A stretch of DNA of 63,986 bases, filler included, from Stramenopiles sp. TOSAG23-2 (Eukaryota), in the NCBI GenBank assembly GCA_900128395.1. It is 3 parts of 3 records of this genome, joined end to end, with 100 filler letters (N's around TTAATTAATTAA, not from the genome) between each part and the next. Parts side by side here need not be neighbours in the genome. Positions count along the whole stretch, not along the records: positions 21,707 to 43,299 come from LT649536.1; 2 more parts are not named here. The stretch is one strand, 5' to 3'. This document shows positions 27,570 through 48,387 of this stretch, one piece after another. The notes beneath the pieces are model-generated. The model had not been told where the DNA came from. It saw only the letters and a list, made by a program, of their open reading frames with translations, and ran no database searches. The position numbers and the translations under genes were made by a program. Positions within the stretch are counted from its first letter, which is position 1, and the number at the start of each line of letters is the position of its first letter.

Positions 27570-30500
27570 ATGAAACATTGTTACTTTTACATAATTTGGA
27601 TCATGGCAACATCGTTTATTGTTGTGACACCTGTAAGCGGCCGCTGCAGAGATGGTGGTATGCGAAACGTGAGAAACGGAGGAGGTTGTAGTTGCAGCCC
27701 GTCACAATGCAGAAGAGATTGGACTGTAAGCGCTGGTGGCGACAATGGTTATGACGAATGCTGTGGTTGTGACATTAGTTGTGAGGCTATGACGAAATTG
27801 ATTAACAACGCAAAGAACATAGCGAACGCTGCTCACAAAACAGCGAACGCTGCTCACAACACAGCGAACAAAGCAAAGACCACAGCGAACAAAGCAAAGA
27901 CCACAGCTGAGGAAGCCGGAAGAAAAGCTGGAGAAGCCAAAAAAACAGCTGTGGAATCCGAAAGAAAAGCTGGAGAAGCCAAAAAAACAGCCACTACAGC
28001 ACAGTCAACAGCAAAGGCGGCGAAAGATAGTGCTGGAGAAGCCAAAAAAACAGCCACTACAGCACAGTCAACAGCAAAGGCGGCAAAAGATAGTGCTGGA
28101 GAAGCCAAAATAACAGCAAAGGCGGCGAAAGATAGTGCTGGAGAAGCCAAAACAACAGCCACTACAGCACGGTCAACAGCAAAGGCGGCAAAAGATAGTG
28201 CCACTACAGCAAAGAAAACAGCTGCGGAAGCCGGAGGAAAAGCTGGAGAAGCCCATAAATCAGCTGGAGAAGCCAAAACAACAGCCTCTACAGCACAGTC
28301 AGCAGCAAACGAGGCGAAAAAAAGAGCTGGAGAAGCCCATAAATCAGCCACGACAGCACAGGAATCAGCATCTACAGCACATAAATCAGCTGGAGAAGCC
28401 CATAAATTAGCCACTACAGCACAGAAAACAGCCATCACAGCTCAGTCAACAGCAAAGGCGGCGAAAGTTAGTGCCAGTACAGCACAGGAAACAGCAAAGG
28501 CGGCAAAAGATAGTGCCGCTACAGCAAAGAAAACAGCTGCGGAAGCCGTAGGAAAAGCTGGAGAAGCCCATAAATCAGCTGGAGAAGCCAAAACAACAGC
28601 CTCTACAGCTCAGTCAGCAGCAAACGAGGCGAAAAAAAGAGCTGGAGAAGCCCATAAATCAGCCACGACAGCACAGGAATCAGCATCTACAGCACATAAA
28701 TCAGCTGGAGAAGCCCATAAATTAGCCACTACAGCACAGAAAACAGCCATCACAGCTCAGTCAACAGCAAAGGCGGCGAAAGTTAGTGCCAGTACAGCAC
28801 AGGAAACAGCAAAGGCGGCAAAAGATAGTGCCGCTACAGCAAAGAAAACAGCTGCGGAAGCCGTAGGAAAAGCTGGAGAAGCCCATAAATCAGCTGGAGA
28901 AGCCAAAACAACAGCCTCTACAGCTCAGTCAGCAGCAAACGAGGCGAAAAAAAGAGCTGGAGAAGCCCATAAATCAGCCACGACAGCACAGTCAACAGCC
29001 ACCACAGCACAAAAAACAGCCACTACAGCAAAGTCAACCGCAAGCAAGGCTCACTCATTGGCTAGTACAGCACAGAAAATAGCCGGAGAAGCAAAAGATG
29101 GAGCGGAACGTGTAAAAGAAAGTGTTCAAATTACAAAAGCAAGTGTGGAAAAGTTGAAAGAAACAGCTGATAATAAAATCAAAGAGTTAAAAGAAAGTAC
29201 TAATACTCACGTCACAGAAATCAAAACTAAACTGGATGAACAAAAGGAAAAAACAAACGATTTATCGATTAAAAATTCACGTTTATGGCAAAAAGAACAA
29301 ATACGTTTACAACATGATACGACGATGCAACATCGTAAAACCAAAGATAATACAAATGAAAAATCATCATGTAAAAGTGAACGTACAAAAGGTACAATTA
29401 TATTTCCTGCAATTGAAATTTCAAATGAAATTGAAGACAAAGAAGATACAACATGTATTGATACCAACCGTGATGAATTATTAAAATCATTTTGTTCCTT
29501 TAGAATGGATTTAGACAATTTATTTAAAATACAAAGTATTAAAAAAGAAGCAAAAACATTTTGGCCTAATATATGTTGTAAAGAACGTAATGGTAATGAT
29601 ATTTCCAAAACATTAGAATCGTGCAAACCACCTGAAGGTAGTGATATTAAACCTGAAAACATGATACCATTTGCTTTATCACAAGGTGGACATTACAATC
29701 GTCATAATTTATATGTGGAAGTGACGGAGGCCATTAAGGAGAATGGATATTTACATGAAGGCATGGAAAAGTTGCTCGATTCGTTTCCATCATCTATGGA
29801 TATAAAAAAAGAAAAAGCAAAAGAAAAGGTTGGCAAGTTCTTTAATGAGGTCTCATTATGCGGCCCACGTATTGTGGATGCTCCGGGAAACAATGAAAAT
29901 AAATTATGTGAATTGTTTGTTCCTTATAAACATGCAATGAGAAACTTTTACAATTTAATTAAAAGTTTGTATATCAAACCAATGAAAATCCAATCAGCAT
30001 TTTTTTTAGAAACCATGGAGCGTTCGCTGCGTAAACGTTCGGAAACGAAACGTGTAGGAAAAAGCAATATACAAAATATAATGCAAATGAAACCTAAAAC
30101 CACTGCAGAAGCAACATGCACGGGCGGTTCCAAATGGACGTCTTCGGAACTAAAAGAGAAAAAGCAAGACTTTTGTCTTGGTTACAACCATTTAGATTTA
30201 AGCGATACCAACATTAAAAACGTTGCGATACATTATTTGAAACACGATATATCGTACGATGATAAGAAAATGTTTGAGTTGTCTGAGCAATTGCGTTACG
30301 AGGTAACAGACAGTTCCTGTCCCGCACCATTGTTCACTGCGAATGATATTTCGATTCAACAAGTCGGGATGGATGTATTAGGAAAAGAAAAAGAATGGGT
30401 AGCAGTTGTTAATTTGAATACCCAGGATAAAGATGGTTATTTACAAAGTGAGTTGCCACATTGCGAAGATCGAAAATATTTAATTGGTGCTAAAGTAGTA

Positions 30501-30722
30501 GTGAAAGCATATGTAGATGACAGAAATTGTTGTAAAACGATGAAAGACTCAACAAAATGTGAAGATTTATGCGGAAAGCCATTGAGAAGATTGAACGATA
30601 CTGACCACAAACATTATTCCAAAGACGTGGTGTTGACGGGAACGCATTACGAGGTAAAAAATCCACATGATGTGAGAAGGAGGAGGCGGTTGTTGAAGGA
30701 TCGCAACAGTCACTTGTGTTAA
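27570..30722 (+). CDS. Secreted fibre-like protein: signal peptide, Cys-rich head, Ala/Thr/Lys heptad stalk, Cys-rich C-terminal domain, RRRRLL motif
   Basis: 1050-aa ORF; hydrophobic N-terminus; about 430 aa of 7-aa repeats such as AGEAKKT, ATTAQST, AKAAKDS. Confidence 0.88.
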   Translation: MKHCYFYIIWIMATSFIVVTPVSGRCRDGGMRNVRNGGGCSCSPSQCRRDWTVSAGGDNGYDECCGCDISCEAMTKLINNAKNIANAAHKTANAAHNTANKAKTTANKAKTTAEEAGRKAGEAKKTAVESERKAGEAKKTATTAQSTAKAAKDSAGEAKKTATTAQSTAKAAKDSAGEAKITAKAAKDSAGEAKTTATTARSTAKAAKDSATTAKKTAAEAGGKAGEAHKSAGEAKTTASTAQSAANEAKKRAGEAHKSATTAQESASTAHKSAGEAHKLATTAQKTAITAQSTAKAAKVSASTAQETAKAAKDSAATAKKTAAEAVGKAGEAHKSAGEAKTTASTAQSAANEAKKRAGEAHKSATTAQESASTAHKSAGEAHKLATTAQKTAITAQSTAKAAKVSASTAQETAKAAKDSAATAKKTAAEAVGKAGEAHKSAGEAKTTASTAQSAANEAKKRAGEAHKSATTAQSTATTAQKTATTAKSTASKAHSLASTAQKIAGEAKDGAERVKESVQITKASVEKLKETADNKIKELKESTNTHVTEIKTKLDEQKEKTNDLSIKNSRLWQKEQIRLQHDTTMQHRKTKDNTNEKSSCKSERTKGTIIFPAIEISNEIEDKEDTTCIDTNRDELLKSFCSFRMDLDNLFKIQSIKKEAKTFWPNICCKERNGNDISKTLESCKPPEGSDIKPENMIPFALSQGGHYNRHNLYVEVTEAIKENGYLHEGMEKLLDSFPSSMDIKKEKAKEKVGKFFNEVSLCGPRIVDAPGNNENKLCELFVPYKHAMRNFYNLIKSLYIKPMKIQSAFFLETMERSLRKRSETKRVGKSNIQNIMQMKPKTTAEATCTGGSKWTSSELKEKKQDFCLGYNHLDLSDTNIKNVAIHYLKHDISYDDKKMFELSEQLRYEVTDSSCPAPLFTANDISIQQVGMDVLGKEKEWVAVVNLNTQDKDGYLQSELPHCEDRKYLIGAKVVVKAYVDDRNCCKTMKDSTKCEDLCGKPLRRLNDTDHKHYSKDVVLTGTHYEVKNPHDVRRRRRLLKDRNSHLC
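27805..29100 (+). repeat. Coding minisatellite of 21-nt modules with a 315-bp higher-order repeat
   Basis: AAAGATAGTG at 28191, 28506 and 28821 (period 315 = 15 x 21); GCTGGAGAAGCC recurs throughout. Confidence 0.92.
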
Positions 30723-30810: not shown

Positions 30811-32943
30811 TTACGATCTACAATCTCCACCATCATATTCACATTCATATGAATTACACTCTACATCACAATATCCATCGTTCTTCACATGACGACTCCA
30901 ACAATATTTACTACATAACGGCTCACAATCCAAAGACTTGTCAATACTACACACTTCATTACCAGAGAAATACGATTCAACGTTATTCGTTTTTATCAAT
31001 TTTTTCAATCCATCATCAACATCTGTAATATTATTATCTCTTGCGTCTAGATAGTTTAACCGTTTAAAATTAGATAAATATAATGGAAGGGATTTTAAAT
31101 TACACCGTGCGACTCCCATTTGAACAAGGTTACCTTGTAGCGATTCGTCAGGAAATGTTAGTAACTTATTTCCATTCAAATATAAAAACATTAAATTTGG
31201 AAATTTTTCTCTGTTGAAAATTATATTCAGAGTCATACCATTATTAGCGAAAGCAAGAAACTGCAACAACGGCATATTTATATCAATTTTTGGCGGGTAT
31301 AAACCAATATTACTTTCTAATTGGACACCAACAAGATTCTTATGTGTCCACAATGCCTTTTCGTCATATCGTGTAATATTATTATTGCGCAAATGTAAAG
31401 TCACCAACTTTTCCCATTTACTAATATTAACATCAAACGCATTCAACTTATTATATGAGACTCTAAAGTCAACCATCTCATTTAAACGTTCCATTTTTGG
31501 TGGCAATGTCTTTAAGCTACAATTTGTAATTACAACCTTTCTCAAACCATCCATTTCACTTACAATATTATCCGGCAACTTCGTCAAATTTTTTTCCCCC
31601 TCAATTTTCAAAAATGCACAATTACATTTCGGATGAAATGGTCTATTACAAAAAGGAATTTTAATTTGGCATCCTTTGTTCCATATCAAATCTTTTATTT
31701 CAAAAGTTTCCTCGTCACATGTATTTAAAAACGATATGGTAGCCAATTGCCCAATAACTATAACGACTAAACCTAGTACATAAATAAAACTCATAGTAAA
31801 TACTGTCATTTTTGCGCAACGTGGAAAGTATTTATTTTGTGTCTTTGCTATTTCATCTCTTAATGAGGTTGCATACAACGATTGACGTCTTCTATTCTTT
31901 TTCTTAGATTCCTCCTCTTGTTTTTTACTTATGTTTAAACTGATAAGATCAAACAAACTATGTTTCAATATTGCACGTAATTTTCCAGCCAATGAAAACG
32001 ATGGCATCATAATAATTTGTATTATTTCAGCCACAGATATTTGCATGTCATAGACTACTTGTATTAAAAAAAGTGGCACAAATACAAAAAATAAATCAAT
32101 TGCAATGTCAAGTTTCACTTGGAAATTACGTTCGCCAACATCAATTTTTGTTTTTCCTGTATTACTACTTTTTTTGTACATAATCTTACAGCGATAAATA
32201 GATTCAATTATAAGCATCAAAGCAAACAGCGCATTCCATTCAATTGGTAATGTACAGGAATACACTGTTATTAAATTTGTAAATTGTATCCAATTTTCAA
32301 CAAATTCATGTAAATATAATTTATATAAATAAAATTTTCCATTTATACCTAAATTACTATTATATAAGTTGAATATATATTTAAGTCTTCCCCCTCTGCT
32401 ATTGCGATGTAGAAACTTTTTTTTTCCCCATCGTCTTACTATTCGTTTCCAACAAAGACTAAAATATGAAAATTGGAAAAAAAATATGATGGAAAATATT
32501 AAAAATATCCATATAAATTCCATATTGGCACGGGAAAAGTTTGTAGTTCCACGCGGATTCGCATATTTGAAATAAATATAAAATTGAAACCCAGATATTA
32601 CCAACATGGTGGTAAGTAAAAGAAACCCACTGCAACCAAAATTTTTGCAATTGCATGATAAATTATCCAATATATCTTGCGCAATTTGATCTGTTGTAGA
32701 TACAGTTCGTTTGATTCTTTTTTTATCCTCTTTTTCTTTCTTCTTTTTTTGAACCTCGTTGTTGGTAATGCATAAAAGATCCAATGGTTGCATACCAGAT
32801 TGTATTTGTTCTTTCTTTAAATTCTTCTCCATTTCACTGGATATATTGTTAGTATGCATCATAACAATTTCAACATTCTTTAAAGCGTCATTTTGATTAC
32901 CCTGCTCAACATTGTCAATATTATTAATATTATCATTCTCCAT
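30811..32943 (-). CDS. Multi-pass membrane protein with C-terminal leucine-rich repeats and an LNR (Notch)-like domain
   Basis: About 6-7 hydrophobic segments; LRRs LVTLHLRNNNI, LMFLYLNGNKL, LNYLDARDNNI; terminal DGYCDVECNSYECEYDGGDC. Confidence 0.88.
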   Translation of the reverse strand: MENDNINNIDNVEQGNQNDALKNVEIVMMHTNNISSEMEKNLKKEQIQSGMQPLDLLCITNNEVQKKKKEKEDKKRIKRTVSTTDQIAQDILDNLSCNCKNFGCSGFLLLTTMLVISGFQFYIYFKYANPRGTTNFSRANMEFIWIFLIFSIIFFFQFSYFSLCWKRIVRRWGKKKFLHRNSRGGRLKYIFNLYNSNLGINGKFYLYKLYLHEFVENWIQFTNLITVYSCTLPIEWNALFALMLIIESIYRCKIMYKKSSNTGKTKIDVGERNFQVKLDIAIDLFFVFVPLFLIQVVYDMQISVAEIIQIIMMPSFSLAGKLRAILKHSLFDLISLNISKKQEEESKKKNRRRQSLYATSLRDEIAKTQNKYFPRCAKMTVFTMSFIYVLGLVVIVIGQLATISFLNTCDEETFEIKDLIWNKGCQIKIPFCNRPFHPKCNCAFLKIEGEKNLTKLPDNIVSEMDGLRKVVITNCSLKTLPPKMERLNEMVDFRVSYNKLNAFDVNISKWEKLVTLHLRNNNITRYDEKALWTHKNLVGVQLESNIGLYPPKIDINMPLLQFLAFANNGMTLNIIFNREKFPNLMFLYLNGNKLLTFPDESLQGNLVQMGVARCNLKSLPLYLSNFKRLNYLDARDNNITDVDDGLKKLIKTNNVESYFSGNEVCSIDKSLDCEPLCSKYCWSRHVKNDGYCDVECNSYECEYDGGDCRS

Positions 32944-33688: not shown

Positions 33689-35953
33689 CTACTCTTCATG
33701 TGCACCAATATCATCATCTAACATTTTCGCCAATTCAAAAATTGAACCACCTTGTGATAAATAATCTACGTAATCATCGTTTCCATTATTATTATATATA
33801 TTATTACTACTACTATGGTTTTTATTTTGTTGTCTTGCGGACGACGACGATGACGATGATGAAATGTCAATAGCATTTATACCTACTTTAATTTCTTCTT
33901 GATCATCATCAATTTCTGGTTTTGATACATTATTTGATTTCTTTTTGCTTTTTACCGTCACTGCTGTCTTTCGAGTATTATTATTATTTTTATTTTTATT
34001 ATTACTACCATTGATGTTACTTCCCCTATCGTCAATACTCTCAATGGACGTAGCTTTTTTCTTCTCCTTTTCACGTTGTTTCTTTTTCTTACGTTTCTTT
34101 TTCTTTGCCTTAGCTTTACTCGATTTTTCCGCAGCTTCTTCAGCATACATTTCATCCCATTGACTTAGTTGATAAGACAAATGGAATTTTTCACAACTAC
34201 AATTTGTACATACCATACATTTACATTCATTACAATAGAAGCAATCTCTTGCATTTTTACCACTTATATTGTTGCATATTGTACATGTGATAAAATAATT
34301 ATTCCATAGAGAAGATGCACGTTTTGATAAGACTGGATCGCCAGATTTTTGCAACATTTCAACTTTTTTTAAATCAATTAAATGAGCATGACGGTTTGGT
34401 TTTTCAAAGACAATATTAGAATCACTCTCAGGATTCCCGTTATTGTTACTATCGTTACCATTATTTTTTGAAGAAACAAAATTTGCTTGGCGAGTATCAC
34501 TACCTTTTGATTTCTTTTTCTTGTTTTTATTATTATCATTAATAGTTTTACTACTATTATTATTACTTTGATTCTTGTTGTTGTTGTTGTTCTTCTTCTT
34601 CTTATTGGTATTATCACCACCATCTAATATAGCTTTTTTACGAATTGCAGCTAGTATTGGATTGCCATTACCACCCCCATTATCACCCATTTCACCAACT
34701 TTTAATACTTTTTCAAGCCCTTCCAATGCCATTCCAGCCATAGATCGTTCTCCCAGTAAATTGCATAAAATAGTTACGCATCCACATTTTGACAACGCTT
34801 CAATTTGTTTACCGGAACCACATGATGTTGCATTTAAAATAACCCAACAAGCTTCTATTTTAACATCTTGATCAGTACGATCATCTGATATAAGTTTAAT
34901 TAATAATGGTATTACCCCGGAATTCAATACATACTGAATTTGATCCTCCGAACCAGCAGCAATATTGGACAATGTCCAACACGCTTCTTTCTGGATTTCC
35001 CGATTTGAATGACTAACTAACTTCTCCAACCGATGCACTGCATTTAACTGTACAATATGCTGTGTATAATCCTGTTTTTCATCCTCCGCGCATACGATGT
35101 TTCCTATTGTCCTCAATGCAGGTTTTGCTACACGCCATGAGCGATGCTCGAGCAATGCAATCAAGCGTTGGCATACATTAGAATGGACAACTTGTTCCAC
35201 ATATTTACTTGGACCATCACATAAATGACTTAATGCCCAGCAAACGTGACTAAGCACTTCCGTATCATCATTACTGATGATTTTTACTAGGCAAGACAAG
35301 ACAGCTTGTAAATTAAACGACGAGGTGGACGATGAATATGCTTGTGGTTGACCATCGCATATATTGCTCAATGCCCATGTAGATATACGCTGTAAGGACA
35401 AACGGTTACTGTTATTTATTATTTGCAACAATGGCACCAAAGCCTTTTCCTTTAACACTTTGTCCCTGGCTGGCGGCCCATCACCGGCTAGATTACCCAA
35501 TACCCATACAGCTTGTTCTAACACTTCATCATTTGAAGATCCCATCAAACCAACTAATGCTGGAATTGCTCCTTTTTGTATTAATACCCGTGCATGGTCG
35601 CTGGAACCTGCCGCCACATTTGTTAATGCCCATAAAGCTTCTACCTGCAATTCAGTCACGTCATCACGTTTTAAAAAACTAAGCAATCGCGGTATTAAAT
35701 CATGAGCTATTACATCATCTATTAAATATTCTCGCTCTACACTTAAAAGTTGTCGTATTTTCTTAGTTGCTGCTAATTGATCATCCGTTTTTGTACTATA
35801 CAATGATTTTTCTACTTGTCTCAGCAAACTTCTTAAAGCAGGCGTTTCACTATGGCGGTGGATCATGCGATGTTGCTGATGTTGTAAAAATTCTTCTGGT
35901 GTTCGGTAGTTTGGTTGACTTGATTCAGCTTTCCCACCTAAGATTACATCCAT
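33689..35953 (-). CDS. Importin-alpha-like ARM protein with a C-terminal Cys-rich cluster and Lys-rich tail; true start probably at 36228 via a frameshift or intron
   Basis: IRQLLS, EALWALTNVAAG, EQAVWVLGNLAGD, WALSHLCDG, PALRTIGNIV, KEACWTLSNIAAG, EACWVILNATS. Confidence 0.9.
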   Translation of the reverse strand: MDVILGGKAESSQPNYRTPEEFLQHQQHRMIHRHSETPALRSLLRQVEKSLYSTKTDDQLAATKKIRQLLSVEREYLIDDVIAHDLIPRLLSFLKRDDVTELQVEALWALTNVAAGSSDHARVLIQKGAIPALVGLMGSSNDEVLEQAVWVLGNLAGDGPPARDKVLKEKALVPLLQIINNSNRLSLQRISTWALSNICDGQPQAYSSSTSSFNLQAVLSCLVKIISNDDTEVLSHVCWALSHLCDGPSKYVEQVVHSNVCQRLIALLEHRSWRVAKPALRTIGNIVCAEDEKQDYTQHIVQLNAVHRLEKLVSHSNREIQKEACWTLSNIAAGSEDQIQYVLNSGVIPLLIKLISDDRTDQDVKIEACWVILNATSCGSGKQIEALSKCGCVTILCNLLGERSMAGMALEGLEKVLKVGEMGDNGGGNGNPILAAIRKKAILDGGDNTNKKKKNNNNNKNQSNNNSSKTINDNNKNKKKKSKGSDTRQANFVSSKNNGNDSNNNGNPESDSNIVFEKPNRHAHLIDLKKVEMLQKSGDPVLSKRASSLWNNYFITCTICNNISGKNARDCFYCNECKCMVCTNCSCEKFHLSYQLSQWDEMYAEEAAEKSSKAKAKKKKRKKKKQREKEKKKATSIESIDDRGSNINGSNNKNKNNNNTRKTAVTVKSKKKSNNVSKPEIDDDQEEIKVGINAIDISSSSSSSSARQQNKNHSSSNNIYNNNGNDDYVDYLSQGGSIFELAKMLDDDIGAHEE

Positions 35954-36228: not shown

Positions 36229-38010
36229 ATTTATTATAATATATTATATTAAATATATTTATAAAATGATTTATTATTATGATCTATTTATTTATATGTA
36301 TATTTGAAATATATATATCCCTCCACCCCTCCACTCGATACCTATCTATCTATATATGTATCTACAATAAGGAGGAATTTTCAATTTCTTTATTATTCTT
36401 TTTGTTTTGTTTTTGGTATGATAAATATATATATAAAATGCATCACACAATCTTCGAGAGTATCATATGGATTATAAATAAATAAAACACATATATTTAT
36501 TATATTATATTATATTTTATAAATTTGTATTATTGTGGGATACACATTGAGATAATTACAGGGTGAATATTATGAGTTCTAAATAGGATTTATAGACTAC
36601 ATATCAGTACAATAAAAAATTCTATCGGAAATTTGTACGCCGTTTTGCACAATGGATTTTCACATATACCATAATAAAGCCATTTAATGCATTCATTACT
36701 TCACTAACGAGCACTCCCAAGAACATTCAATATGTATATACGAGCAATTTAATGTTACAATCTCTTTATTTATATACAAAATGAAAATAATTTATGCTTT
36801 CTATTGTTTTTAAAGACGGAATACTGATGTTGTAAAATTATTTTTAAATAAATGCACTAAATTCCCATAAATCCGACTATAAACCTTAAAAAATATCGAA
36901 TAGCAAAAAATACTTCCCTATGCAATTACATCAAAAGTAAAGTGGGTTATCGATTACCAGTCGGTATGTGAACTGGAATATATCTCAGTTAGTGCGCATT
37001 TTGTTCTTTTTATGAAAAAAATATATTTTTGTATATTTAGTGTGTATGTGTTGGGTGACATGGAAGAGAATTGCATGCATTGTTGAACTTGGAGAGTGTG
37101 TAAATCCTTTGGTGTGTATAGTGTATGGCACAAAAATTTTTGCGCACTACCTTGGTATGTCTCTGGTGCCTCTTTAAAATCGCATTAATAAAAAAGTTGG
37201 ATTTTTGGAGTTATGGGCTTGGGTTTGGGTTTTGGTCAGTGGAGATTCTGAATTACCTTGCTGTGTAATGTACCAAACGGTCATATAACTAATTATACCT
37301 TAAGACTCTCCTGCTCACAAGGACAAAGATAGTGCTATGTCATGTAAGTATAAGTACCTAAAATTCCCATTGTGTGTCCATATAAATTATCTCAATGTGT
37401 ATCCCACAAATATTATTTTTTGGCCTTTCAGCTTTCTTCCACAGCTTTCCTCGTATTCTAATACCCTTTTCAAGTATATAGCTGAGCATCTTCAACCTAT
37501 ATACAGATATCTTTGCTTTGCTATCCCCATATACTATTTTAGATGCATGCTATCATCCATCACATATGCTAATGCTATATCACAGCTTTTAATCATTTTA
37601 TCATTTTATCATTTTTAATTTTTATCTGTGTGATAGCATGAATATTTCCATACCTAACCGGCTAACACTATACAACTTATCTAGGAAATTCCCGCAGTGC
37701 GATGTGTACTTTTGTGTTTTCGTGTTTTATTTGATCGGATTTTTCCTCGCGGCACCTCGTATTACCTGCTGTGTCTACAGTATCCTATACAATGCTATGT
37801 TCATATTAGCAAACCACTCAGCCATACAAATTTATTATTATTATTTTTGGGCCTCATCATCGAATCGTCGAATGAATGAACAACAAAGATGTGTATATAT
37901 CATTTCGTGTGTGTGTATGTATATATATATGATATGATATACAGAATAGATACATAACAATCAAAAAGAGAAAGAGAAATCAATAGCAGTACCACTAGTA
38001 CTATCATATC

Positions 38011-41000
38011 ATGTTGCGTAGATATATTATTAACAATTATGGAGTTGCCCCCCCCCAAAAAGTAAAAACAGTTTTAAAACATTTCGCAAGTGTTCATTTT
38101 TCTTCCACAACAACAACTGGTGGGGATGACGGTGATGGGGAGGATAATAATAACAATAATAATAATAGTGATAGTGAAGATAATAATAATATTAACGACG
38201 ATGATGACGTTGGAACAACAATCGATACTACACAAGAAAGTGTGACAGGCGTAGCACGGCGCGGGTTTGAACCATTGAATACATTGAAAATTTTGAAAAC
38301 TGCATCAAAAGCTGTTGCAAATAAGCATAAAGATAAGCAAGATGCTATATTGCGTTATCGTATGAATATTAAAGACGAAGATTTAGGTGATATACGTAGA
38401 ATGTTTGAACAACGTAGGCTATTAAGAGATGTGCAAAAGAGCAATGAATTAGGCGATGAGGAAATGATGGACGTGGACGATGAGCAGCCTGAATGGGTCA
38501 TTGAGGACGAAAACTACAATTATCCTCCCACCGGCTTTTCCCCAACTGATGTTGAAACATTGTATAAATTTTTACATCCATCCGGTAAAATCATGCCAAG
38601 GTATCAAACAAAATTAAGGGCAAAACATCAACGCAAATTAGCAAAAGCGGTCAAAGCGGCGAGACAAATGGGGTTAATACCCACGACATATGCGTTGCCA
38701 AAACATTTGCAAGAAAAATTTGTACCAGAGGCACTATATGCGCGTGCTCAAACGATGACAAAAAGAGAAAAAACAGATATACGCAACAAGAAAAAAAAAG
38801 AAAGAAAAAAATTAAGATCATTGGAGAATAGGAAAATAATATTAAATGAAAATGAGTTACCAAGTGTTTTAGTTTCTGGTGGCCCTTATTTATTTCACAA
38901 TAGCATGGAAGGTATTGGTACATACGTTGAACGTGTAAAAGATGGGGAGGATTATGAAATATCATTAAGAGGTTCTAACGATAATATCGAAAGAATCTTG
39001 GAAAAGGTCGAACATCGTAAACAAAATTTAATTACAGAGACATTGGAGTTTCCAAAAGAACTTGCAATACCAATTATTGGAAAGAAAGGAGCGAATTTAA
39101 GACGATTTGGGCAAGATCATGGAGTATATTTAAAATTAAAGAGTGATACGAGCGGTGAAGGCAACTTTGATAATTTAAAAGTAGAAATGATTGGTTTGCA
39201 AGAAGAAGTTGAGTTTGCTAGCGAGGCTATGAAAATATTTGTAAAGGATCCAAGCATCGTACGACCTTTTCGTTGGAGGTATGAATATTTGCTACATAAT
39301 CATTTTTCATCGGAAATTGGCAAAATCAATGCCATGTGCAGTGAATTTAAAGGACATGTCGTCTTTAAAGATGGGACAGTATTATGCTATGTTGACAAAA
39401 TGAACCCTTTCAGTAAGAAGAAAAGCAAAGATACCATGGCAAAGGCAATACGTACATTTGCATCGGAAAAGTTGATACGTTTACCAATTAATAGTAGTGC
39501 TGTTCCAGACTGGTTGCAGCCTTTGTTTGGGGATACAAATGGAAATAAAAATGCATTTTTATTGAAGAAATATTTGATGCAAAATTATAACGTCACATTA
39601 TATGACAGTAACGAGGACGACGACGATGAGGATGGAAGATACTGGGTAGTAGGTCTTGATGACAATGATACAAGGCAATTTCAAAGTGATTTTTTAAGAT
39701 TAATTGGAAATTCATTTGTAATTGATAATAGTGTCTTGCCACGTGTTCTTGGTCAAGTTAAAAAAATCCAAGATACCACCAACACATTTATCCAGTTTTT
39801 GTACAAAGATTCCACTAAGAAGGAAAATGTATGCTTAATTATTGGAAGTGATGATAATGTAAATAATGCAAAAGATTTAATTGAAAAAATTAGTAGCCGT
39901 GATAGTTTCGAAAAGGAAGCAGGTGTTCAACAGACAATGTTAAAAATTCGAGAAGATATGAAATATGATTGGAGTATTGCAAATGAATTTATCAATTGTT
40001 CTGTACAGAGTGGAAACAGTGACGATGAAGTTGCAGTATTTTATGATACTGATGAAAGCTTGCAACGATTAGAAGATTATATTCAAAAACGAAATTTACA
40101 TGTTGATGGTAGTAATGATGTAGAATTTGTTGAAGATGAAATATATTTACCAAGCATTATTGTACCTCAAATTTCTGGGAAAGGTCAAAAAAATTTAAGA
40201 TGTCTTCGTTTTTTCACCGGTGCAAATATATCATTAAGCGATGCTGGCTTAAAGTTTCAAGGGCCAAAAGAACAAGTGGAGGAAGCTGTAAGACTTACTC
40301 GTTCTAAAATAGAAGCCATATCCCAGCAAGCCACTGACAAACCGACTGATGTTTATGAATTTCCAGTAGCAGCTGTTCCAGTATTTATGCAAAAAGACAA
40401 AAGGAATGCCATGAATGAATTCACACGCATTTCTGCAGAGACTGGAACTTTATTGCAATTTAAACAGGAAGGTTTAGATTTACGTAAAAAAACCCTTTTG
40501 ATTTTTGGCACTCCAGCACAATGTAAAGTGGCCAAACAACGATGTGTTGATGTGGTGGATTCAATAAATATAGAATCGGTCACAGTGCAATTAAATAAAT
40601 ATACAAGCGATGGTGTTGATACGGACACGATTACGGATGGAGTGTTTGATAATTTACATAATTTTCAAGTGCGTTCAAATGCAGCACTTATTGTTAGAAG
40701 TGATACAGTAGAAATACACGGCGATGAAAGATACATCGATAAAGGTGTTGCAGTATTAGGAGAGATAATTGACACATTTAAAGATAAGGAAACGCAAATG
40801 ATTACCATCCCAGAAAACAGAATTTCTGAAATTATTGGCGGAGGTGGTAAAAACATTCGTCGATTGAAAAAGATATCAGGATGCAGCGGAATTCAAATTC
40901 ATGACGAAAGAACTGTTGGTGTGGAGGAAGGATTTAAACAAGTTGAATTTACTGGAAAAAGGTACCAAACGGAAATTGCCATTGACCAGTTGTTTCAAGA

Positions 41001-41583
41001 CCTAGAATTTGCAGATAGAAGATATTCCACTATTACTCGTAATGTAGATAATAAAGATTTGCAATTACTATTGCAAGACGATGGTGAATTTTTAAGAAAC
41101 TTAATTATAATATGCGGGATTAAGATGTCAATAAAAGAGGAAGAAACGCTTACTGGTAGAGATTCAAGCAGGGTTGAATTTAAAGGTTTCGGCTCGAATC
41201 TTTATAAAGCATTAAGCTTAATTGAAAAATATGTTAAAACAGGAGAAAGACCAGAGTTTTTTGAAATGAAATATACTATAAAAAAGAACAAATTAAGTCA
41301 AGTTTTAGGCGTTCCAGGCTTAAAGAATATTGGCAACAACGCACAAAGTACAATCCCAGGACATTTGAAACATTTGAAAATGGTAGAGAGAAATAGTCTT
41401 GCGTTGTTTAAAAGCTTATCAAAGCGTCGTTATGGCGTTGTTGATTTAACAATTGTTGGAACGAAAGAGGAAATTAGTAAAGCAAGACAATTATTAGACC
41501 CGGATCAAGTTGCATTGTTTGAAATTCAAGAAGAATGGCTTGAACGTGAAAAAATGGGGGTGCAGGCAGCATCATATTCTTAA
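38011..41583 (+). CDS. Ribosomal bS18 domain fused to a multi-KH-domain array, with a predicted mitochondrial targeting peptide
   Basis: DVETLYKFLHPSGKIMPRYQTKLRAKHQRKLAKAVKAARQMGLIP (bS18); KH motifs IIGKKGANLRR, ISGKGQKNLR, IIGGGGKNIRRL plus degenerate copies; MLRRY... basic, acid-free N-terminus. Confidence 0.88.
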   Translation: MLRRYIINNYGVAPPQKVKTVLKHFASVHFSSTTTTGGDDGDGEDNNNNNNNSDSEDNNNINDDDDVGTTIDTTQESVTGVARRGFEPLNTLKILKTASKAVANKHKDKQDAILRYRMNIKDEDLGDIRRMFEQRRLLRDVQKSNELGDEEMMDVDDEQPEWVIEDENYNYPPTGFSPTDVETLYKFLHPSGKIMPRYQTKLRAKHQRKLAKAVKAARQMGLIPTTYALPKHLQEKFVPEALYARAQTMTKREKTDIRNKKKKERKKLRSLENRKIILNENELPSVLVSGGPYLFHNSMEGIGTYVERVKDGEDYEISLRGSNDNIERILEKVEHRKQNLITETLEFPKELAIPIIGKKGANLRRFGQDHGVYLKLKSDTSGEGNFDNLKVEMIGLQEEVEFASEAMKIFVKDPSIVRPFRWRYEYLLHNHFSSEIGKINAMCSEFKGHVVFKDGTVLCYVDKMNPFSKKKSKDTMAKAIRTFASEKLIRLPINSSAVPDWLQPLFGDTNGNKNAFLLKKYLMQNYNVTLYDSNEDDDDEDGRYWVVGLDDNDTRQFQSDFLRLIGNSFVIDNSVLPRVLGQVKKIQDTTNTFIQFLYKDSTKKENVCLIIGSDDNVNNAKDLIEKISSRDSFEKEAGVQQTMLKIREDMKYDWSIANEFINCSVQSGNSDDEVAVFYDTDESLQRLEDYIQKRNLHVDGSNDVEFVEDEIYLPSIIVPQISGKGQKNLRCLRFFTGANISLSDAGLKFQGPKEQVEEAVRLTRSKIEAISQQATDKPTDVYEFPVAAVPVFMQKDKRNAMNEFTRISAETGTLLQFKQEGLDLRKKTLLIFGTPAQCKVAKQRCVDVVDSINIESVTVQLNKYTSDGVDTDTITDGVFDNLHNFQVRSNAALIVRSDTVEIHGDERYIDKGVAVLGEIIDTFKDKETQMITIPENRISEIIGGGGKNIRRLKKISGCSGIQIHDERTVGVEEGFKQVEFTGKRYQTEIAIDQLFQDLEFADRRYSTITRNVDNKDLQLLLQDDGEFLRNLIIICGIKMSIKEEETLTGRDSSRVEFKGFGSNLYKALSLIEKYVKTGERPEFFEMKYTIKKNKLSQVLGVPGLKNIGNNAQSTIPGHLKHLKMVERNSLALFKSLSKRRYGVVDLTIVGTKEEISKARQLLDPDQVALFEIQEEWLEREKMGVQAASYS

Positions 41584-41944
41584 AGAAGCAACGTCGTAAA
41601 AACCTTTTTTTATAAAACTATATTTTCTTCTTAAAATGCAGATAATATTTAGTATTTTATAAGTTTCTATTTTCATAAAAACGGGGATATTTTTCAACGT
41701 TTCTCCCATGCTTAGAGACTACAAAAGAAATAGGTTTTGGAGCAAATACATGCAATAGCACTATATACTATTATTATCTTCTTTTTAAATAATATAATAA
41801 TTTCAATAATAATTGAATTGATAAATAATATATATATATCAATTAATAACTAAGAAATATTATAATTAGATTAGAGAAATGAATATGTTGAAGAGAATAT
41901 ATATATATATATGAAGAGAGAGACTATATATATATATATATATC

Positions 41945-42972
41945 ATGTCGTCAATGGTAACGAATCCGCCACATGCGAAACGACAACGTACGTTGTTACA
42001 ACCGGCAACCATCGAAGCGTTACAAGAAGAACGTGCGGAACCTATTGAAATTGGTATATTAGTTTTACCAGCTGGATTTGAGTCTGCCTGCGGGATAATG
42101 ACAAAAATACTTCTACATTTAGATATTCGATCATTATGTAATGTTAAACGATCTTCTTTAATACAACAATGTAGAAAAGCATTTGGATGTGATGATTTTG
42201 AACGTGTACGTGATGAAGCCTTAAGTATTGATTATAAAGGTAGAAGAAGTATAAATGAGATGAGACTTTCACATCCAGCGAGAAGACTTTATTTATTAAT
42301 TGAAAGATATCAAAGAGAGTTTCCACGTGGTACTTATCACAGAGGTCGAATACCAACACCTATCGTATGTGCATGTCAACACGGACGTACGAATGATGTA
42401 GAATTATTTATGAATCTTCATACTTATCACAAGTATATTACTAATTGTGATGTGAATGGCTACAGAGATGATATGACATTGAAAGATATGGTGAGTCAAG
42501 TCGGTAAAACTAGTGAAGGTTATGATCGTACACCTTTTACCGAGATGATATGACATTGAAAGATATGGTGAGTCAAGTCGGTAAAGATAGTTATGGTGGT
42601 GAATGGACACCTTTAATGATAGCTGCATTGAAAGAACATTTCCAAGTAGTTAAATATTTAATTGAACAAGGTGAAGCTGATCCTAATGCAACTAGTTATT
42701 ATGGAATGAATGCATTACATTATGCAGCAGGTTGGAACAGAACGTATACTAATTTGATTCAGCTCTTGTTGAATAATATGTCTCTTGATAGTATTAACCA
42801 AGAAAACAACGTTGGAGAAACTCCGTTAGACTATTGTTATGGTGAGAATGATAGTCCAAATCGCCAAGAAATCATTGCACTTTTACGTTCAAAAGGTGGA
42901 ATTGCAAATGATTATGATGAAAATGGTAATGAAATAGATTCAGAAGATGAAGATGATTACGAAGATTACTAA
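41945..42972 (+). pseudogene. F-box-like + ankyrin-repeat gene split by a 77-bp internal duplication (pseudogene, or rescued by splicing)
   Basis: KILLHLDIRSLCNV (F-box-like); TPIVCACQHG, TPLMIAALKEHFQVVKYLIEQGEADPN, NALHYAA, GETPLD; GAGATGATATGACATTGAAAGATATGGTGAGTCAAGTCGGTAAA at 42465 and 42542. Confidence 0.75.
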
Positions 42973-44064: not shown

Positions 44065-47000
44065 ATGTCAAGTATTGCTGCAACAGCAAATGCGACGTCT
44101 TCGAATAATAATAATAATAATGCAACACTACCTTCTTCTCCAATAGCGGTTCAAAAATCAGCTTCGGATACGCGAGACTATCGATATTTAAAGTTAAAGA
44201 ATGACTTATCAGTTTTATTGATTTCTGATCCTACGACGGACAAAGCTGGTGCTGCAATGTCTGTTGCAGTTGGTTATTTTTGTGACCCCGATGACATTGC
44301 TGGTGTCGCTCATTTTTGTGAACATATGTTATTTTTAGGAACGACAAAATATCCAGATGAAAATTCATATAGTGCATTTTTAAATGAAAATGGTGGTTAC
44401 AGCAATGCTTATACGAGCAAGGAGAGTACAAATTATTATTTTCAGTTAACGCATCCTCATTTAGAAAAAGCTCTTGACCGATTTGCGCAATTTTTCATCT
44501 CGCCATTGTTTACCGACACTGCAACTGGGAGAGAGTTAGAAGCGGTAAATAGCGAACATGAAAAGAATATACAAAATGATAGTTGGCGTGCACATCAATT
44601 ATGGCATACAACATCTAATCCACTTCATCCTTGTGCAAAATTTGGTACGGGAAGCAAAGCGACGTTGGATTTGCCAGAAACTAGAGATACGCTTTTGAAT
44701 TTCCATAAGACGTATTACAGCTCAAATATTATGAATTTATGTGTATATGGTAGTGAAGATTTAGATGTGTTGCAACGATGGGTGGATGATAAATTTTCAA
44801 GTATTATAAATAAAAATGTTTCCGTTCCTAAATATTTGGACGTACCACCTCAAACAGACGAACAATTGGGTACACAATTTTTCGTCGTACCAATCAAAGA
44901 TTTACGAAGCGTAACTATTGTATGGAATTTCCCACCTTTAAAAACAAAATATCCAAAAAAAGCAAATGGTTACATCTCTCATTTATTAGGTGATGAAGGC
45001 CCTGGTTCTATTTTAGCGGCATTGAAGGCAAAGGGATGGGCAAATGAACTGATGGCAGGAATAATGGCAAGTACAAATAGTTATGCGCAAATGAATGTTA
45101 AAATAAATTTAACAAACGATGGAATGAATGAAATTTATAACGTTGTTGATATGGTATATCAATACATTCATATGATGCGTTTAGCAAAGCCACAAGAATG
45201 GATATGGAAAGAAATGAAAGATATTCATGAGATGAATTTTCGATTTAAACAAAAAAGCGAAGTTGATAATTATGTTTCCTCAATAGCCGCTTCAATGGAA
45301 TCTGTTAAGCCTGAACATATTTTATGCCATCATTACTTAGCAGAAGAGTACGATCCTAATTTAATAGCTGAATTGATGGATTTGTTAAATCCAAAAAATT
45401 GTCGCATTACGTATACAGGTTTGAAATATGCAGACGTTTGCAACCAAGCGGAAAAGTGGTATGGTACAAAGTATAAGGAAGAGAAGATTTCAGAAGAAAA
45501 TTTGTTGAAATGGTCAACTGTACCAGCATCTATTGATCCGTCCTTGCATTTACCACCAAAAAACGTTTTTATTGCAACCGATTTTGCTTTGAGGAGAGAA
45601 TCTACTAAAGGTGGGGATGATAATAATGGAAGTATATGGAGAGAAGTTACGGAAAGCGTGACAGCAGATCCTGAACATCGAGGGCAACCACCACCAGCAG
45701 TTGCTTTAATACGGCATGATGAGCAAGCGGAGGTATGGTTTAAACAAGATGATTTTTTTAAGCAACCAAAAGTAAATTTTATTATCTCCTTGCATACGCC
45801 ATTAGCCTATGCTACTGCGAAAAGTTGCGTATTAACTGATATGACGTGTGCCTTGGTAAAAGATGCTTTAAATGAATATGCATATAGTGCTGAAGTTGCT
45901 GGATTATCATACCAGGTATACAATACAGTCCAAGGTTTGCAACTATATTTCCTAGGTTACAATGATAAAATGTATTTACTTGCTGGAAAAGTTGCAGAGA
46001 CATTGGCAAATTTAAAAATTGATGCAAAACGTTTTGATATTATTCGTGATAAAGTACGTTTAGATAAAAAGAATTTTGAAATGGAACAACCTTATAATTG
46101 GAGTTTGTACAATACAACGCATTCATTACGGACACCAAGATGGCATAATAGTGATAAAGTTAAGATGTTAGATACGATTGAAATAGATGAATTGACAGAT
46201 TTTGTTAAAATGTTATTAAATCGTTTATTTATACAGGCAGTTGTGCATGGAAACGTTACCGAAGAAGAGGCATTAGCACTTGTAACGGCGTTCGAGAAAC
46301 CTTTAAATGCTGATGTATTAATGCCAGCTGAGAGATTTTTATTACAACGCATTATTAAATTACCAAGCGATGGATCTTCTTTTATTTATTCTGAAGCTGC
46401 GCGTGATCCAGATAACGTAAATTCAGCAATTGAGGTATATTTCCAAATTGGCCAACGTACACATGAAGCAGATGCACGATTAGGATTATTAGCATCTATT
46501 ATGAGTGAGCCGTGCTTTGATCATTTAAGAACAAAGGAACAATTGGGTTACATTGTCTTTAGTGGTAAAATCACGGATGATGGTATTCTAGGATTGCGTA
46601 TTATTGTACAGTCAGCGAAATGTAATCCACAAGGTTTAGATGACCATATTGAAACATTTCTTACGGCATTTCGTACGAAACTAGGTAAAATGAGTGATGA
46701 AGATTTTAAAAAACAACGTGATAGTTTAATCATAAGTTATTTAAAGAAACCAAAATCAATGATAGATGAAACTTTTAAATACGTAAATGAGTTAGAATCC
46801 AAAACATATGTTTTTGATCGAAAATGGAAAGTTGCTGCAGAGTTAGATCGTTTATCATTACATGATATTGTTTCATTTTTTGATTATTACATATCCAAAG
46901 GTGCAGTTGAGCGCAAAAAAATAAGTATACGAATTGTAGGCAAAGTAGTTGCAAAAGAATCTGATGCTAAAGGTGATGATAAGACAAATGATAGTAATAA

Positions 47001-47253
47001 TAAGAAGGAAGAAGAAGGTAATAATGATGGTAATAATAAGAGTGGGCAAGAAACTACAAGTAGTAGTACTAGTTCCACAGCTGCTACAACGACCGTCGTT
47101 GAGGAAGCAACGTTATCATATGGCACATTAACTGAAAATGGTGAAACTATTATTAAAGATTTAGATCAATTTAAGAGATCTATGTGTTTGTATCCTGTAG
47201 AAGCTAGTTATTCAATTCAAAATGCTAATGCGAAGAATATGTTACCGAATTAA
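44065..47253 (+). CDS. IDE: Insulin-degrading enzyme / insulysin (peptidase M16A)
   Basis: AHFCEHMLFLGT (HxxEH), SNAYT, ELEAVNSEHEKN, KFGTG, FDHLRTKEQLGYIVFSG. Confidence 0.96.
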   Translation: MSSIAATANATSSNNNNNNATLPSSPIAVQKSASDTRDYRYLKLKNDLSVLLISDPTTDKAGAAMSVAVGYFCDPDDIAGVAHFCEHMLFLGTTKYPDENSYSAFLNENGGYSNAYTSKESTNYYFQLTHPHLEKALDRFAQFFISPLFTDTATGRELEAVNSEHEKNIQNDSWRAHQLWHTTSNPLHPCAKFGTGSKATLDLPETRDTLLNFHKTYYSSNIMNLCVYGSEDLDVLQRWVDDKFSSIINKNVSVPKYLDVPPQTDEQLGTQFFVVPIKDLRSVTIVWNFPPLKTKYPKKANGYISHLLGDEGPGSILAALKAKGWANELMAGIMASTNSYAQMNVKINLTNDGMNEIYNVVDMVYQYIHMMRLAKPQEWIWKEMKDIHEMNFRFKQKSEVDNYVSSIAASMESVKPEHILCHHYLAEEYDPNLIAELMDLLNPKNCRITYTGLKYADVCNQAEKWYGTKYKEEKISEENLLKWSTVPASIDPSLHLPPKNVFIATDFALRRESTKGGDDNNGSIWREVTESVTADPEHRGQPPPAVALIRHDEQAEVWFKQDDFFKQPKVNFIISLHTPLAYATAKSCVLTDMTCALVKDALNEYAYSAEVAGLSYQVYNTVQGLQLYFLGYNDKMYLLAGKVAETLANLKIDAKRFDIIRDKVRLDKKNFEMEQPYNWSLYNTTHSLRTPRWHNSDKVKMLDTIEIDELTDFVKMLLNRLFIQAVVHGNVTEEEALALVTAFEKPLNADVLMPAERFLLQRIIKLPSDGSSFIYSEAARDPDNVNSAIEVYFQIGQRTHEADARLGLLASIMSEPCFDHLRTKEQLGYIVFSGKITDDGILGLRIIVQSAKCNPQGLDDHIETFLTAFRTKLGKMSDEDFKKQRDSLIISYLKKPKSMIDETFKYVNELESKTYVFDRKWKVAAELDRLSLHDIVSFFDYYISKGAVERKKISIRIVGKVVAKESDAKGDDKTNDSNNKKEEEGNNDGNNKSGQETTSSSTSSTAATTTVVEEATLSYGTLTENGETIIKDLDQFKRSMCLYPVEASYSIQNANAKNMLPN

Positions 47254-47424: not shown

Positions 47425-48387
47425 TTACGAAGACAATTCTAACAATTGATACAATTTTGCTAATGCTTTTTCCTTTTCTTTCATCATTTCATTATCCTGT
47501 TTGTTTTTTTGTCCTTTTTTCCCATCATTTACATTGTTGTTACTAGAGTCTGTCGGCAACGACAAATAATAAATCTCACTTTCACTAAATTGTCCAATTT
47601 CCATGAGACTATTTGCTAATATTTTTTTACAATTCAATGTATCGATGTGATTTTCTCCTAATTTTATAACATATGAATTATATGCCTGCTTAAACAATGT
47701 ATACGCTTCGTTCCATTTCTCTGCTTTCCCATAAACTTGACCTAGCCATGTATAAGCTTCTGCAGCTTTTGGAGATCCAATACCAAATCTCATTTCTCGA
47801 ACTTTTATTAATTTTTCATATGCATTAGCTGCTAATACCCAATCACTTTGTGCAATTGCAGCATTTGCTTTTAAATTTAAACAACGATCATGAGCATCTT
47901 CGTGTTTCCCATCGGCAAACAATTCAAATGAATTTTCTGTCATTAATATTAAGCTACGCAAATCTTTATTTTCATTATTATATTTATACAAACATTCAAA
48001 TAAAATCAAGAAGGACTTTGATGTATAATCACTATCCCAGCCATCCTTCCATAATCTTAAGCATAATGCATGTTCTGCAAAAGCCATACTTTCTTCAGTC
48101 CCGATCACTGATAATGCTGCTTCTTCTCTTAATTTTATGCTATAATCATGCATCATACCCGATGAACGTGTTGATGCAGCCAATGCTGGAAATTTTATTT
48201 TCTCTATTTCTTGGTATTTTTTTTTCAGTTCTATTCCAACGAGCCTTTGTTCTAAATGTTCATCCCATTCTTCTGTAAACGTAGTGGCCAATCTATGTTT
48301 CAATCTATCATGATGTACATCAACAAATTTTAATATGACATAATCTAAATGTATAGAATATGTATCTCCAGGCCAATCATCTTCCAT
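47425..48387 (-). CDS. TPR protein (kinesin-light-chain/TPR_12-like repeats)
   Basis: REMRFGIGSPKAAEAYTWLGQVY, KLGENHIDTLNCKKILANSL. Confidence 0.8.
   Translation of the reverse strand: MEDDWPGDTYSIHLDYVILKFVDVHHDRLKHRLATTFTEEWDEHLEQRLVGIELKKKYQEIEKIKFPALAASTRSSGMMHDYSIKLREEAALSVIGTEESMAFAEHALCLRLWKDGWDSDYTSKSFLILFECLYKYNNENKDLRSLILMTENSFELFADGKHEDAHDRCLNLKANAAIAQSDWVLAANAYEKLIKVREMRFGIGSPKAAEAYTWLGQVYGKAEKWNEAYTLFKQAYNSYVIKLGENHIDTLNCKKILANSLMEIGQFSESEIYYLSLPTDSSNNNVNDGKKGQKNKQDNEMMKEKEKALAKLYQLLELSS

Follow-up and report, generated by a model that had tools for sequence, protein, structure and literature searches.

A predicted bS18m–KH array fusion gene in Stramenopiles sp. TOSAG23-2

The DNA analysed here, referred to as the window, is a stretch of 63,986 nucleotides (three joined parts, filler included) from Stramenopiles sp. 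TOSAG23-2 (assembly GCA_900128395.1). At 38011..41583 on the plus strand, within record LT649536.1, it carries one open reading frame (ORF) that runs from ATG to stop over 1190 codons, is stop-free, and is the sole long ORF of that stretch. The predicted protein consists, in order, of an acid-free, presequence-like N-terminus, a core of ribosomal protein bS18 and a tandem array of KH domains. The identity of the gene and its architecture, a fusion of mitochondrial bS18 (bS18m) to a KH array, are assigned with high confidence.

The open reading frame, its S18 core and its transcripts

A preliminary description, made from the sequence alone, had reported a stop-free ORF of 1190 amino acids (aa), a basic, acid-free N-terminus and a bS18 core at approximately 38536-38682, and had proposed that the S18 and KH families be searched with HMMER. 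The ORF was recovered by ORF scan and translation, and residues 1-38 were found to contain 0 D/E and 5 K/R. PF01084 (Ribosomal_S18) was matched at 38545-38679 with 60.1 bits (gathering cut-off 21; expect value (E) 2.2e-16), so placed as described, and PF00013 (KH_1) was matched by the whole protein with 104.7 bits in four stretches. Two of the outcomes that the description had set against itself, a missing S18 match and a misassembly, were not encountered: the PF01084 match is significant and the contigs described below are joint-free. The whole gene and the parts that precede the array are as follows.

38011..41583, plus strand: whole ORF, bS18m–KH array fusion; 1190 aa, intron-free; RNA contigs and metagenome contigs L001-L003
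37993..38010, plus strand: probable short 5' untranslated region (UTR), a weak hint; RNA contigs start at 37993 (run X4) and 37994 (run X5), two studies
38011..38124, plus strand (aa 1-38): presequence-like N-terminus, putative mitochondrial targeting peptide; no D/E, 5 K/R, 8 S/T
38125..38262, plus strand (aa 39-84): acidic, N/D-rich low-complexity linker, poorly conserved; net charge -12, 12-39% identity to orthologues
38263..38520, plus strand (aa 85-170): conserved N-terminal extension of the S18 core (EPLNTL..ILKTAS..LRYRM); orthologue alignment
38545..38679, plus strand (aa 179-223): ribosomal protein bS18 core; PF01084, TIGR00165 and PDB chain matches
38731..38880, plus strand (aa 241-290): basic linker between S18 core and array; net charge +9, predicted local distance difference test (pLDDT) <50

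Two helices (residues 2-7 and 16-27) were predicted within the N-terminus in a low-confidence model. An acid-free, basic start of at least 33 residues was present in six of seven family members, that of P0165 being just 14 residues long. The presequence also holds a C-run/A-run polymorphism at 38055-38061. The changes Q16K and K17N (PPKNVK instead of PPQKVK) were read in the RNA contigs of run X5, in L002 and L003, and in P0002, a twin of the protein at 99% identity. The extension at aa 85-170 is 81% and 63% identical in near orthologues and 25-28% identical in distant ones. A presequence-like N-terminus and an N-terminal extension are likewise found in the long mitochondrial S18 proteins P0018, P0019 and P0022.

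The S18 core was also recognised by the NCBIfam equivalog model TIGR00165 (48.9 bits, cut-off 38.75). When the whole protein was compared with PDB chains, bacterial bS18 was the best match (6gzq_R2, E 1.8e-8), with the bS18m of 8a22 and mammalian MRPS18C lower. With the S18 part as query, 6gzq_R2 was matched at E 1.4e-9 over aa 180-229 and MRPS18C (7pnt_P) at 4.7e-6. MRPS18C, the true bS18m among the mammalian S18 proteins, was the sole mammalian paralogue among the matches listed (best 60 of 87). Because the equivalog cut-off was passed and MRPS18C was alone in this way, the S18 part is, as far as such matches identify it, a bona fide bS18. About 50 of its residues align with solved chains of bS18 (rpsR product) or bS18m. 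Those chains are 52-143 residues long, whereas the window protein adds a C-terminal KH array of about 900 residues. Among the best 60 chains in each of two PDB searches, all were plain S18 and none joined S18 to KH. The linker that follows the core (aa 241-290) is probably flexible, given its predicted pLDDT of <50.

The stretch was present in 20 run rows from nine studies, all of them seawater or other marine libraries, and 13 were recorded as RNA. Contigs of four marine RNA runs from four studies (oligo-dT, poly(A) or cDNA) were mapped. They tile 37993..41616 with 0 joints, insertions, deletions or loose ends, and RNA depth was zero in both flanks (37600-37893 and 41716-42000). Because of the joint-free tiling and the zero flank depth, the pattern fits an intron-free mRNA with short UTRs rather than contaminating DNA. 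Contigs cannot reveal the true ends of a transcript, and the 5' UTR listed above is for this reason given as a weak hint. Gaps in contig cover at 39364-39657, present in some runs, carry no evidential weight.

RNA reads across 38700-39050 had been proposed as a check on the junction. The linker is crossed without joints, by contigs at 38725-39068, 38729-39093, 38370-38757 and 38210-38782; no contig in any of the four runs covers the S18 core together with the first KH unit. The latter result is what would be expected of a chimeric assembly or of read-through between two adjacent genes. Such an artefact is contradicted by the overlap of the RNA contigs at the junction and by the metagenome contigs L001-L003, which are independent and each carry the uninterrupted 1190-codon ORF with 9-18 codons differing (4-9 synonymous versus 5-9 non-synonymous, too few for selection to be inferred). 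It is further contradicted by the 90% cluster, in which 14 of the 15 listed members are 1190 aa long, and by collinear fusions in orthologues as distant as 24% identity, one of them an intron-free genomic ORF on contig L004. With the ORF intact on L001-L003 and 14 of 15 cluster members of the same length, misassembly is very unlikely, and an artefact of either kind can hardly be the explanation. The locus is accordingly treated as one fused gene.

Fused relatives and conservation

The preliminary description had known of no bS18–multiKH fusion and had suggested a search for the architecture in related protist genomes. No described fusion of this kind was found in the searchable papers, a scope outside which subscription journals and supplementary files fall. 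The architecture itself is not unique: collinear fused orthologues were found in at least six further marine protist lineages (P0144, P0148, P0166, P0159, P0164 and P0165; 24-66% identity for the five that were aligned). Both domains are well known, and the fusion proteins are already in databases, where those that have a name carry only an automatic one, "ribosomal protein S18". It is well known that mitoribosomal proteins can bear long extensions specific to a lineage.

A word-index search returned the 99% twin and a 62% relative that ends at a contig end inside the S18 core, of which P0144 (1178 aa) is the full-length form. P0148 (1013 aa) is an orthologue with 42% identity, and P0166 (1016 aa; L004:2342-5392) is its intron-free genomic counterpart. 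A three-sequence profile recovered P0152/P0159 (1156 and 1224 aa; E 2.4e-84, with 26% identity across 80% of the query) and, by way of these, P0164 (1223 aa) and P0165 (1196 aa), the last labelled "Stramenopile-MAST_4" by EukProt. This one label and the marine-only occurrence suggest a place near MAST-type stramenopiles; an origin in Naegleria, to which base composition and the intron-free ORFs might point, was rejected on the same two grounds. All five orthologues scanned by Pfam contained both PF01084 and PF00013, and the alignment of six sequences stays collinear between the N-terminal extension and the last KH unit.

An exhaustive phmmer search of 1.84 billion representatives yielded 126 matches at E<=1e-3. 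Apart from pieces of close relatives, all were ordinary S18 or multi-KH proteins. When 10 of the 126 were scanned by Pfam, S18 was found in 0 of 7 long multi-KH proteins and KH in 0 of 3 long S18 proteins; the scores of the other long matches suggest that they too lack a second domain. The distant fused orthologues were not among the phmmer matches, and the silence of that search is therefore no evidence of absence; more fused relatives are probably present in the databases. A search of the ESM Atlas gave no usable match. Contig L005, a candidate from a metagenome pattern scan, was dropped as a bacterial rpsF-ssb-rpsR locus and not a member of the family.

Residues 171-240, which hold the S18 core, are the best-conserved part of the protein, at 64-67% identity even with distant orthologues; the array units are 12-39% identical to those of the orthologues. 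Because the S18 core is the most constrained part and the start is presequence-like, the simplest reading is a mitochondrial bS18m. A probability of roughly 0.6 is given to the full reading, namely a nuclear, intron-free gene for the mitochondrial small-subunit protein bS18m with a C-terminal KH arm.

The S18 domain might instead serve an accessory factor as its ribosome dock or as a repurposed module (the factor being a translational activator, for instance, or one that acts in assembly or mRNA stability), with a separate short bS18m at the canonical site. Mammals retain three S18 paralogues at different sites, and the length of the arm varies between the lineages (1013-1224 aa in total protein), as would suit a factor of this type. 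The strong conservation of aa 171-240 argues the other way, as do the passing of the TIGR00165 cut-off and MRPS18C as the only mammalian match among the best 60 of 87, and the docking of such a factor is considered improbable. The reading as bS18m proper is retained below.

The KH array

For a piecewise Pfam scan the protein was cut into pieces of 86-91 residues. The KH_1 gathering score was passed alone by three units (aa ~342-406, 27.8 bits; ~583-626, 30.4 bits; 929-994, 39.1 bits). Two weaker pieces fell below the cut-off (aa ~710-762, 18.6 bits; ~806-844, 12.8 bits), and the remaining array pieces gave no Pfam match. An iterated profile made from the family's own KH units detected eight units in the window protein and 10 in P0159. 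Since that profile is partly circular, a second was built from 31 units of three distant orthologues alone. Applied to the eight window units it gave 17.4, 15.8, 23.4, 17.9, 4.1, 24.6, 0.7 and 8.3 bits; the best of 200 shuffled versions scored 1.1 bits. Chance is excluded for seven units, as their scores of 4.1-24.6 bits exceed the shuffle maximum, and these seven are KH units above chance by sequence. The repeated KH-like units of the preliminary description are thus borne out by Pfam and by the orthologue profile. In all, about 11-12 KH or KH-like units occupy aa ~342-1168, eight recognised by profile and three or four degenerate ones by structure prediction. The units, with a remnant that precedes them, are listed below (the distant profile is the one built from the three distant orthologues).

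38836..39021, plus strand (aa 276-337): strand-strand-helix remnant of KH units that are intact in distant orthologues; modelled secondary structure, low confidence
39034..39249, plus strand (aa 342-413): KH unit with intact GKKG loop (357); KH_1 27.8 bits, distant profile 17.4
39283..39471, plus strand (aa 425-487): degenerate helix-helix-strand-strand-helix unit, KH-like by secondary structure only
39472..39708, plus strand (aa 488-566): degenerate KH-like unit; model of aa 415-706, no Pfam match
39709..39903, plus strand (aa 567-631): KH unit with GxxG loop deleted; KH_1 30.4 bits, distant profile 15.8
39928..40107, plus strand (aa 640-699): degenerate KH-like unit; structural match to PNPase KH, no Pfam match
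40132..40320, plus strand (aa 708-770): KH unit with loop GKGQ; KH_1 18.6 bits (below cut-off alone), distant profile 23.4
40345..40566, plus strand (aa 779-852): KH unit with GxxG in no orthologue; KH_1 12.8, KH_DEAH11_2nd 19.1, distant profile 17.9 bits
40624..40776, plus strand (aa 872-922): degenerate KH unit; distant profile 4.1 bits, no Pfam match
40792..41010, plus strand (aa 928-1000): best-scoring KH unit, with intact GGGG loop (943); KH_1 39.1 bits, distant profile 24.6
41032..41241, plus strand (aa 1008-1077): KH-like unit with loop QDDG versus GKGG in P0159; beta-alpha-alpha-beta-beta-alpha pattern, positional orthology
41263..41514, plus strand (aa 1085-1168): KH-like unit with an insertion and GVPG (1100) at the loop; distant profile 8.3 bits, alignment, no Pfam match

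The remnant at aa 276-337 was aligned to one KH unit of P0159, over the C-terminal half of that unit; an additional KH of P0159, with a GPGG loop, lies opposite a gap in the window protein. The unit at aa 425-487 had no sequence-profile match and is barely probed by the fold search. At aa 567-631 a gap of four residues stands opposite the GKSG of P0159, and aa 872-922 is aligned to a KH of P0159 that bears GESG. The unit at aa 1008-1077 scored 0.7 bits with the distant profile, not above the shuffles.

Three GxxG-type loops (GKKG, GKGQ and GGGG) had been noted at the outset, together with several degenerate units. Strict GxxG was found at KH loop positions as GKKG357, GGGG943 and, in addition, GVPG1100; only the first two belong to units that are clearly recognisable as KH. 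GKGQ at 723 does not conform to GxxG; it is aligned to GRGG of P0159. Alignment and inspection of the loops also agreed with the view that units are degenerate, most KH units being without GxxG. The GxxG motif expected of a type I KH domain is therefore not present across the array, and most units are non-canonical. Because GxxG is absent or altered in most units, the array is best described, by its sequence, as KH-derived domains that are mostly non-canonical.

GxxG patterns numbered 7-10 per array in the distant orthologues versus 3-4 in the clade of the window protein, as a raw count in which overlaps were allowed and matches were not confined to KH loop positions. In the alignment, inspected by eye, GxxG is kept at most KH loop positions of the distant orthologues and lost at most of those in the window protein. 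Because of this difference the window protein looks like a derived, partly degenerate form.

Structure was predicted with AlphaFold, a check that had been suggested earlier. The KH pattern was repeated in the full-length model, with a beta-alpha-alpha-beta-beta-alpha-type order of elements occurring about 11-12 times over aa ~340-1162; the confidence of that model was low. Searched with Foldseek, it gave 23 PDB matches at E<=1e-3, nearly all of them tandem KH proteins (the two exceptions had low probability) and including GLD-3, IMP1-3, FBP, FMRP and KH3 of hnRNP K. The sequence-dark stretch at aa 415-706 was re-predicted with a seven-sequence alignment, and the resulting model (pLDDT 73.3, predicted template modelling score 0.57) shows four units. 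The best Foldseek rows for this model, at 1.2e-3 and weaker, were KH tandems throughout.

Superposition was done with VIA-align, as a re-examination of Foldseek's own candidates, and in that setting aa 566-632 matched FUBP1 KH3 (Z 10.5, root-mean-square deviation (rmsd) 1.6 over 67 residues), aa 567-703 the KHNYN KH1-KH2 pair (Z 11.4; model residues 153-289) and aa 638-696 the KH of human PNPase (Z 7.9, rmsd 1.7 over 58 residues; model residues 224-282). The units at aa 488-566 and 567-631 were jointly matched by KSRP KH2-3 (Z 9.5; model residues 73-220) and by FMRP KH1-2 (Z 8.6). The modelled units at aa 566-632 and 638-696 have the beta-alpha-alpha-beta-beta-alpha order of the KH fold.

Likeness to the proteins of the vigilin/Scp160 type lies in the long tandem array of type I KH domains and in a similar total length. 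The nearest sequence matches without S18 include P0016 (14 KH stretches), P0027 (13) and a 'vigilin-like' protein of a sea cucumber. Both vigilin and Scp160 are associated with ribosomes of the cytosol. The window protein is not their orthologue: identity lies at 22-29% and covers parts of the sequence only (E 1.4e-9 to 1e-3), the vigilin model KH_Vigilin (PF24668) scored 16.1 bits against a cut-off of 27, and none of the seven scanned multi-KH matches has an S18 domain. The ribosome tether of the window protein would, in contrast to theirs, be covalent and organellar.

Proposed role on the platform, and neighbouring genes

The placement of bS18 on the platform near the mRNA exit, as given in the preliminary description, agrees with passages of PMC7797042, in which the 3' end of 16S rRNA binds the bS6/bS18 groove near the mRNA exit channel, with bS1, uS2, uS7 and uS11 nearby. 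The position of bS6/bS18 beside the 3' end of 16S rRNA is also given in passages of PMC9976891 and PMC13000457. Because bS18 occupies a platform site next to the 3' end of the small-subunit rRNA and the mRNA exit, the earlier proposal of a ribosome-tethered mRNA-recognition module is reasonable.

A bS18m with a KH arm projecting from the small-subunit platform near the mRNA exit is probable, to about the degree given above for the gene. The presequence would carry the protein into mitochondria, where the S18 core, together with bS6m, would anchor it to the platform close to the 3' end of the small-subunit rRNA and the mRNA exit. The basic and presumably flexible linker at aa 241-290 would let the KH arm extend from the platform, and since it joins the platform-bound core to the arm, the arm would begin where mRNA exits the subunit. 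Units with usable loops (aa 342-413, 928-1000 and perhaps 708-770) would bind single-stranded RNA, with the 5' regions of mitochondrial mRNAs as the likeliest ligands, and units without loops would serve as spacers or as a scaffold for protein contacts. RNA binding, a mitochondrial location and incorporation into the ribosome are inferred. The handling of mRNA by the arm is a tentative proposal, a little short of even odds.

Of the known systems, bS1 would be the nearest functional analogue of the arm, more so than a PPR protein. The arm would be, as bS1 is, a chain of repeated domains of a type that binds single-stranded RNA, at the platform side near the mRNA exit. According to parts of PMC10123108, bS1 is indispensable for recruiting mRNA, and its OB-fold domains include OB1 and OB2; its binding near bS18 and bS21 is given in PMC7797042. 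It differs in being a separate protein made of OB-fold S1 domains, so that the likeness would be one of position and logic and not of descent. No S1-domain family was among the Pfam matches of the window protein at E<=1.

The preliminary description had compared the arm with PPR proteins of other mitoribosomes, which is fair as an analogy. In passages of PMC8998825, a 2022 review of mitoribosome-specific proteins, mS39 of mammals and mS83 of plants are helical-repeat PPR proteins of the small subunit with a proposed part in mRNA binding, and mS83 adjoins the mRNA exit channel. Both are lineage-specific repeat RNA-binding parts of the small subunit, as the arm would be; they differ in having a PPR fold and not KH, and in being separate subunits and not an extension of a universal ribosomal protein. 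The words "KH domain" have 0 occurrences in the text of that review (PMC8998825).

Several observations weigh against a bS18m that carries an RNA-binding arm, in addition to the lack of a single RNA contig over core and first KH unit. A second, short bS18m gene may exist elsewhere in the genome; within the 64-kb window no second S18 was found. The full-length AlphaFold model is poor (mean pLDDT 48.1), Foldseek with the aa 415-706 model gave 0 matches at E<=1e-3, and the VIA-align scores come only from Foldseek's own candidates. For the units at aa 425-487 and 1008-1077, the likeness to KH comes from secondary structure or positional orthology only. Most loops are altered or lost, as in the deletion of four residues at ~589 and the QDDG at ~1022 that replaces GKGG. 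The net charge of the array is -17 (-2 to -15 in the five aligned orthologues). Judged by these features, the lost loops and acidic array would suit a scaffold no less well than an RNA binder.

P0148 and P0166 also count against that reading, as they are without the ~200 residues that correspond to aa ~285-485 of the window protein (~38863-39465), a loss that takes the first KH unit (GKKG) and the degenerate unit after it. Since the genomic ORF on L004 is uninterrupted, the short form reflects a genuine deletion and cannot be put down to a faulty gene model; some of the arm, at least, can therefore be dispensed with.

These features bear most directly on the possibility that the arm of bS18m packs on the platform or foot and binds rRNA or mitoribosomal proteins, with no role in mRNA handling. 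Many lineage-specific mitoribosomal extensions act as architectural packing. Most units in the clade of the window protein are without a GxxG loop, the array is net acidic, and the best two-domain structural match is to the KH tandems of KHNYN and N4BP1, which are regarded as degenerate KH modules. The distant orthologues, however, keep GxxG (7-10 raw matches; most loop positions by eye), and the ancestral arm therefore looks competent for RNA binding. GKKG357 and GGGG943 belong to the KH units with the best scores in the window protein, and the basic, low-confidence linker suggests an arm that is mobile and not packed. Packing alone is fairly unlikely, and the projecting arm is preferred to it.

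A wider form of the projecting-arm proposal, which is unlikely on balance, is that a clade including MAST-4 built a vigilin-like mRNA-capture arm into its mitoribosome. The arm would there replace the work done by bS1 and Shine-Dalgarno pairing in bacteria or by PPR proteins and activators in other mitochondria, and in the sub-clade of the window protein it would be changing from an RNA binder into a largely loop-less scaffold on which two or three heads still work.

How mitoribosomes place mRNA without Shine-Dalgarno pairing varies by lineage and is only partly understood. Among the known solutions, as given in parts of PMC8998825, mammals and plants use PPR subunits and yeast uses translational activators; a stramenopile mitoribosome is absent from the structures counted there. 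If the proposal is true, a universal platform protein equipped with a KH chain of its own would add another, independent solution that uses a different RNA-binding fold. The family offers a natural series, from arrays with many GxxG loops to those with two or three, plus the short form, that could help to tell which KH units matter. If the arm is purely structural, it would be a clear case of a mitoribosomal protein that grew by capture of a repeat array.

The other genes of the window that were annotated are listed below.

27570-30722, plus strand: 1050-aa ORF; sole Pfam match PF11839 (Alanine-zipper, major outer membrane lipoprotein), E 1.7e-23, aa 78-134
30811-32943, minus strand: 710-aa ORF with leucine-rich repeats and a C-terminal Notch LNR (PF00066, E 2.3e-7)
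33689-35953, minus strand: armadillo-repeat protein (7 Arm stretches)
44065-47253, plus strand: 1062-aa insulinase-type M16 peptidase with four lobes (PF00675, PF05193, PF16187, PF22456)
47425-48387, minus strand: TPR protein

The pairing of domains in the 710-aa ORF is unusual for a protist. The PF11839 match of the 1050-aa ORF is probably a compositional or coiled-coil repeat match, and no other part of the window is as GC-rich (0.41) or as AT-skewed as the region of that ORF. The M16 peptidase gene lies 2.5 kb downstream of the bS18m gene, as positions count along the joined stretch. Every ORF of at least 200 aa in the window is long and uninterrupted, at ~33% GC, and the genome therefore appears to be intron-poor and gene-dense.

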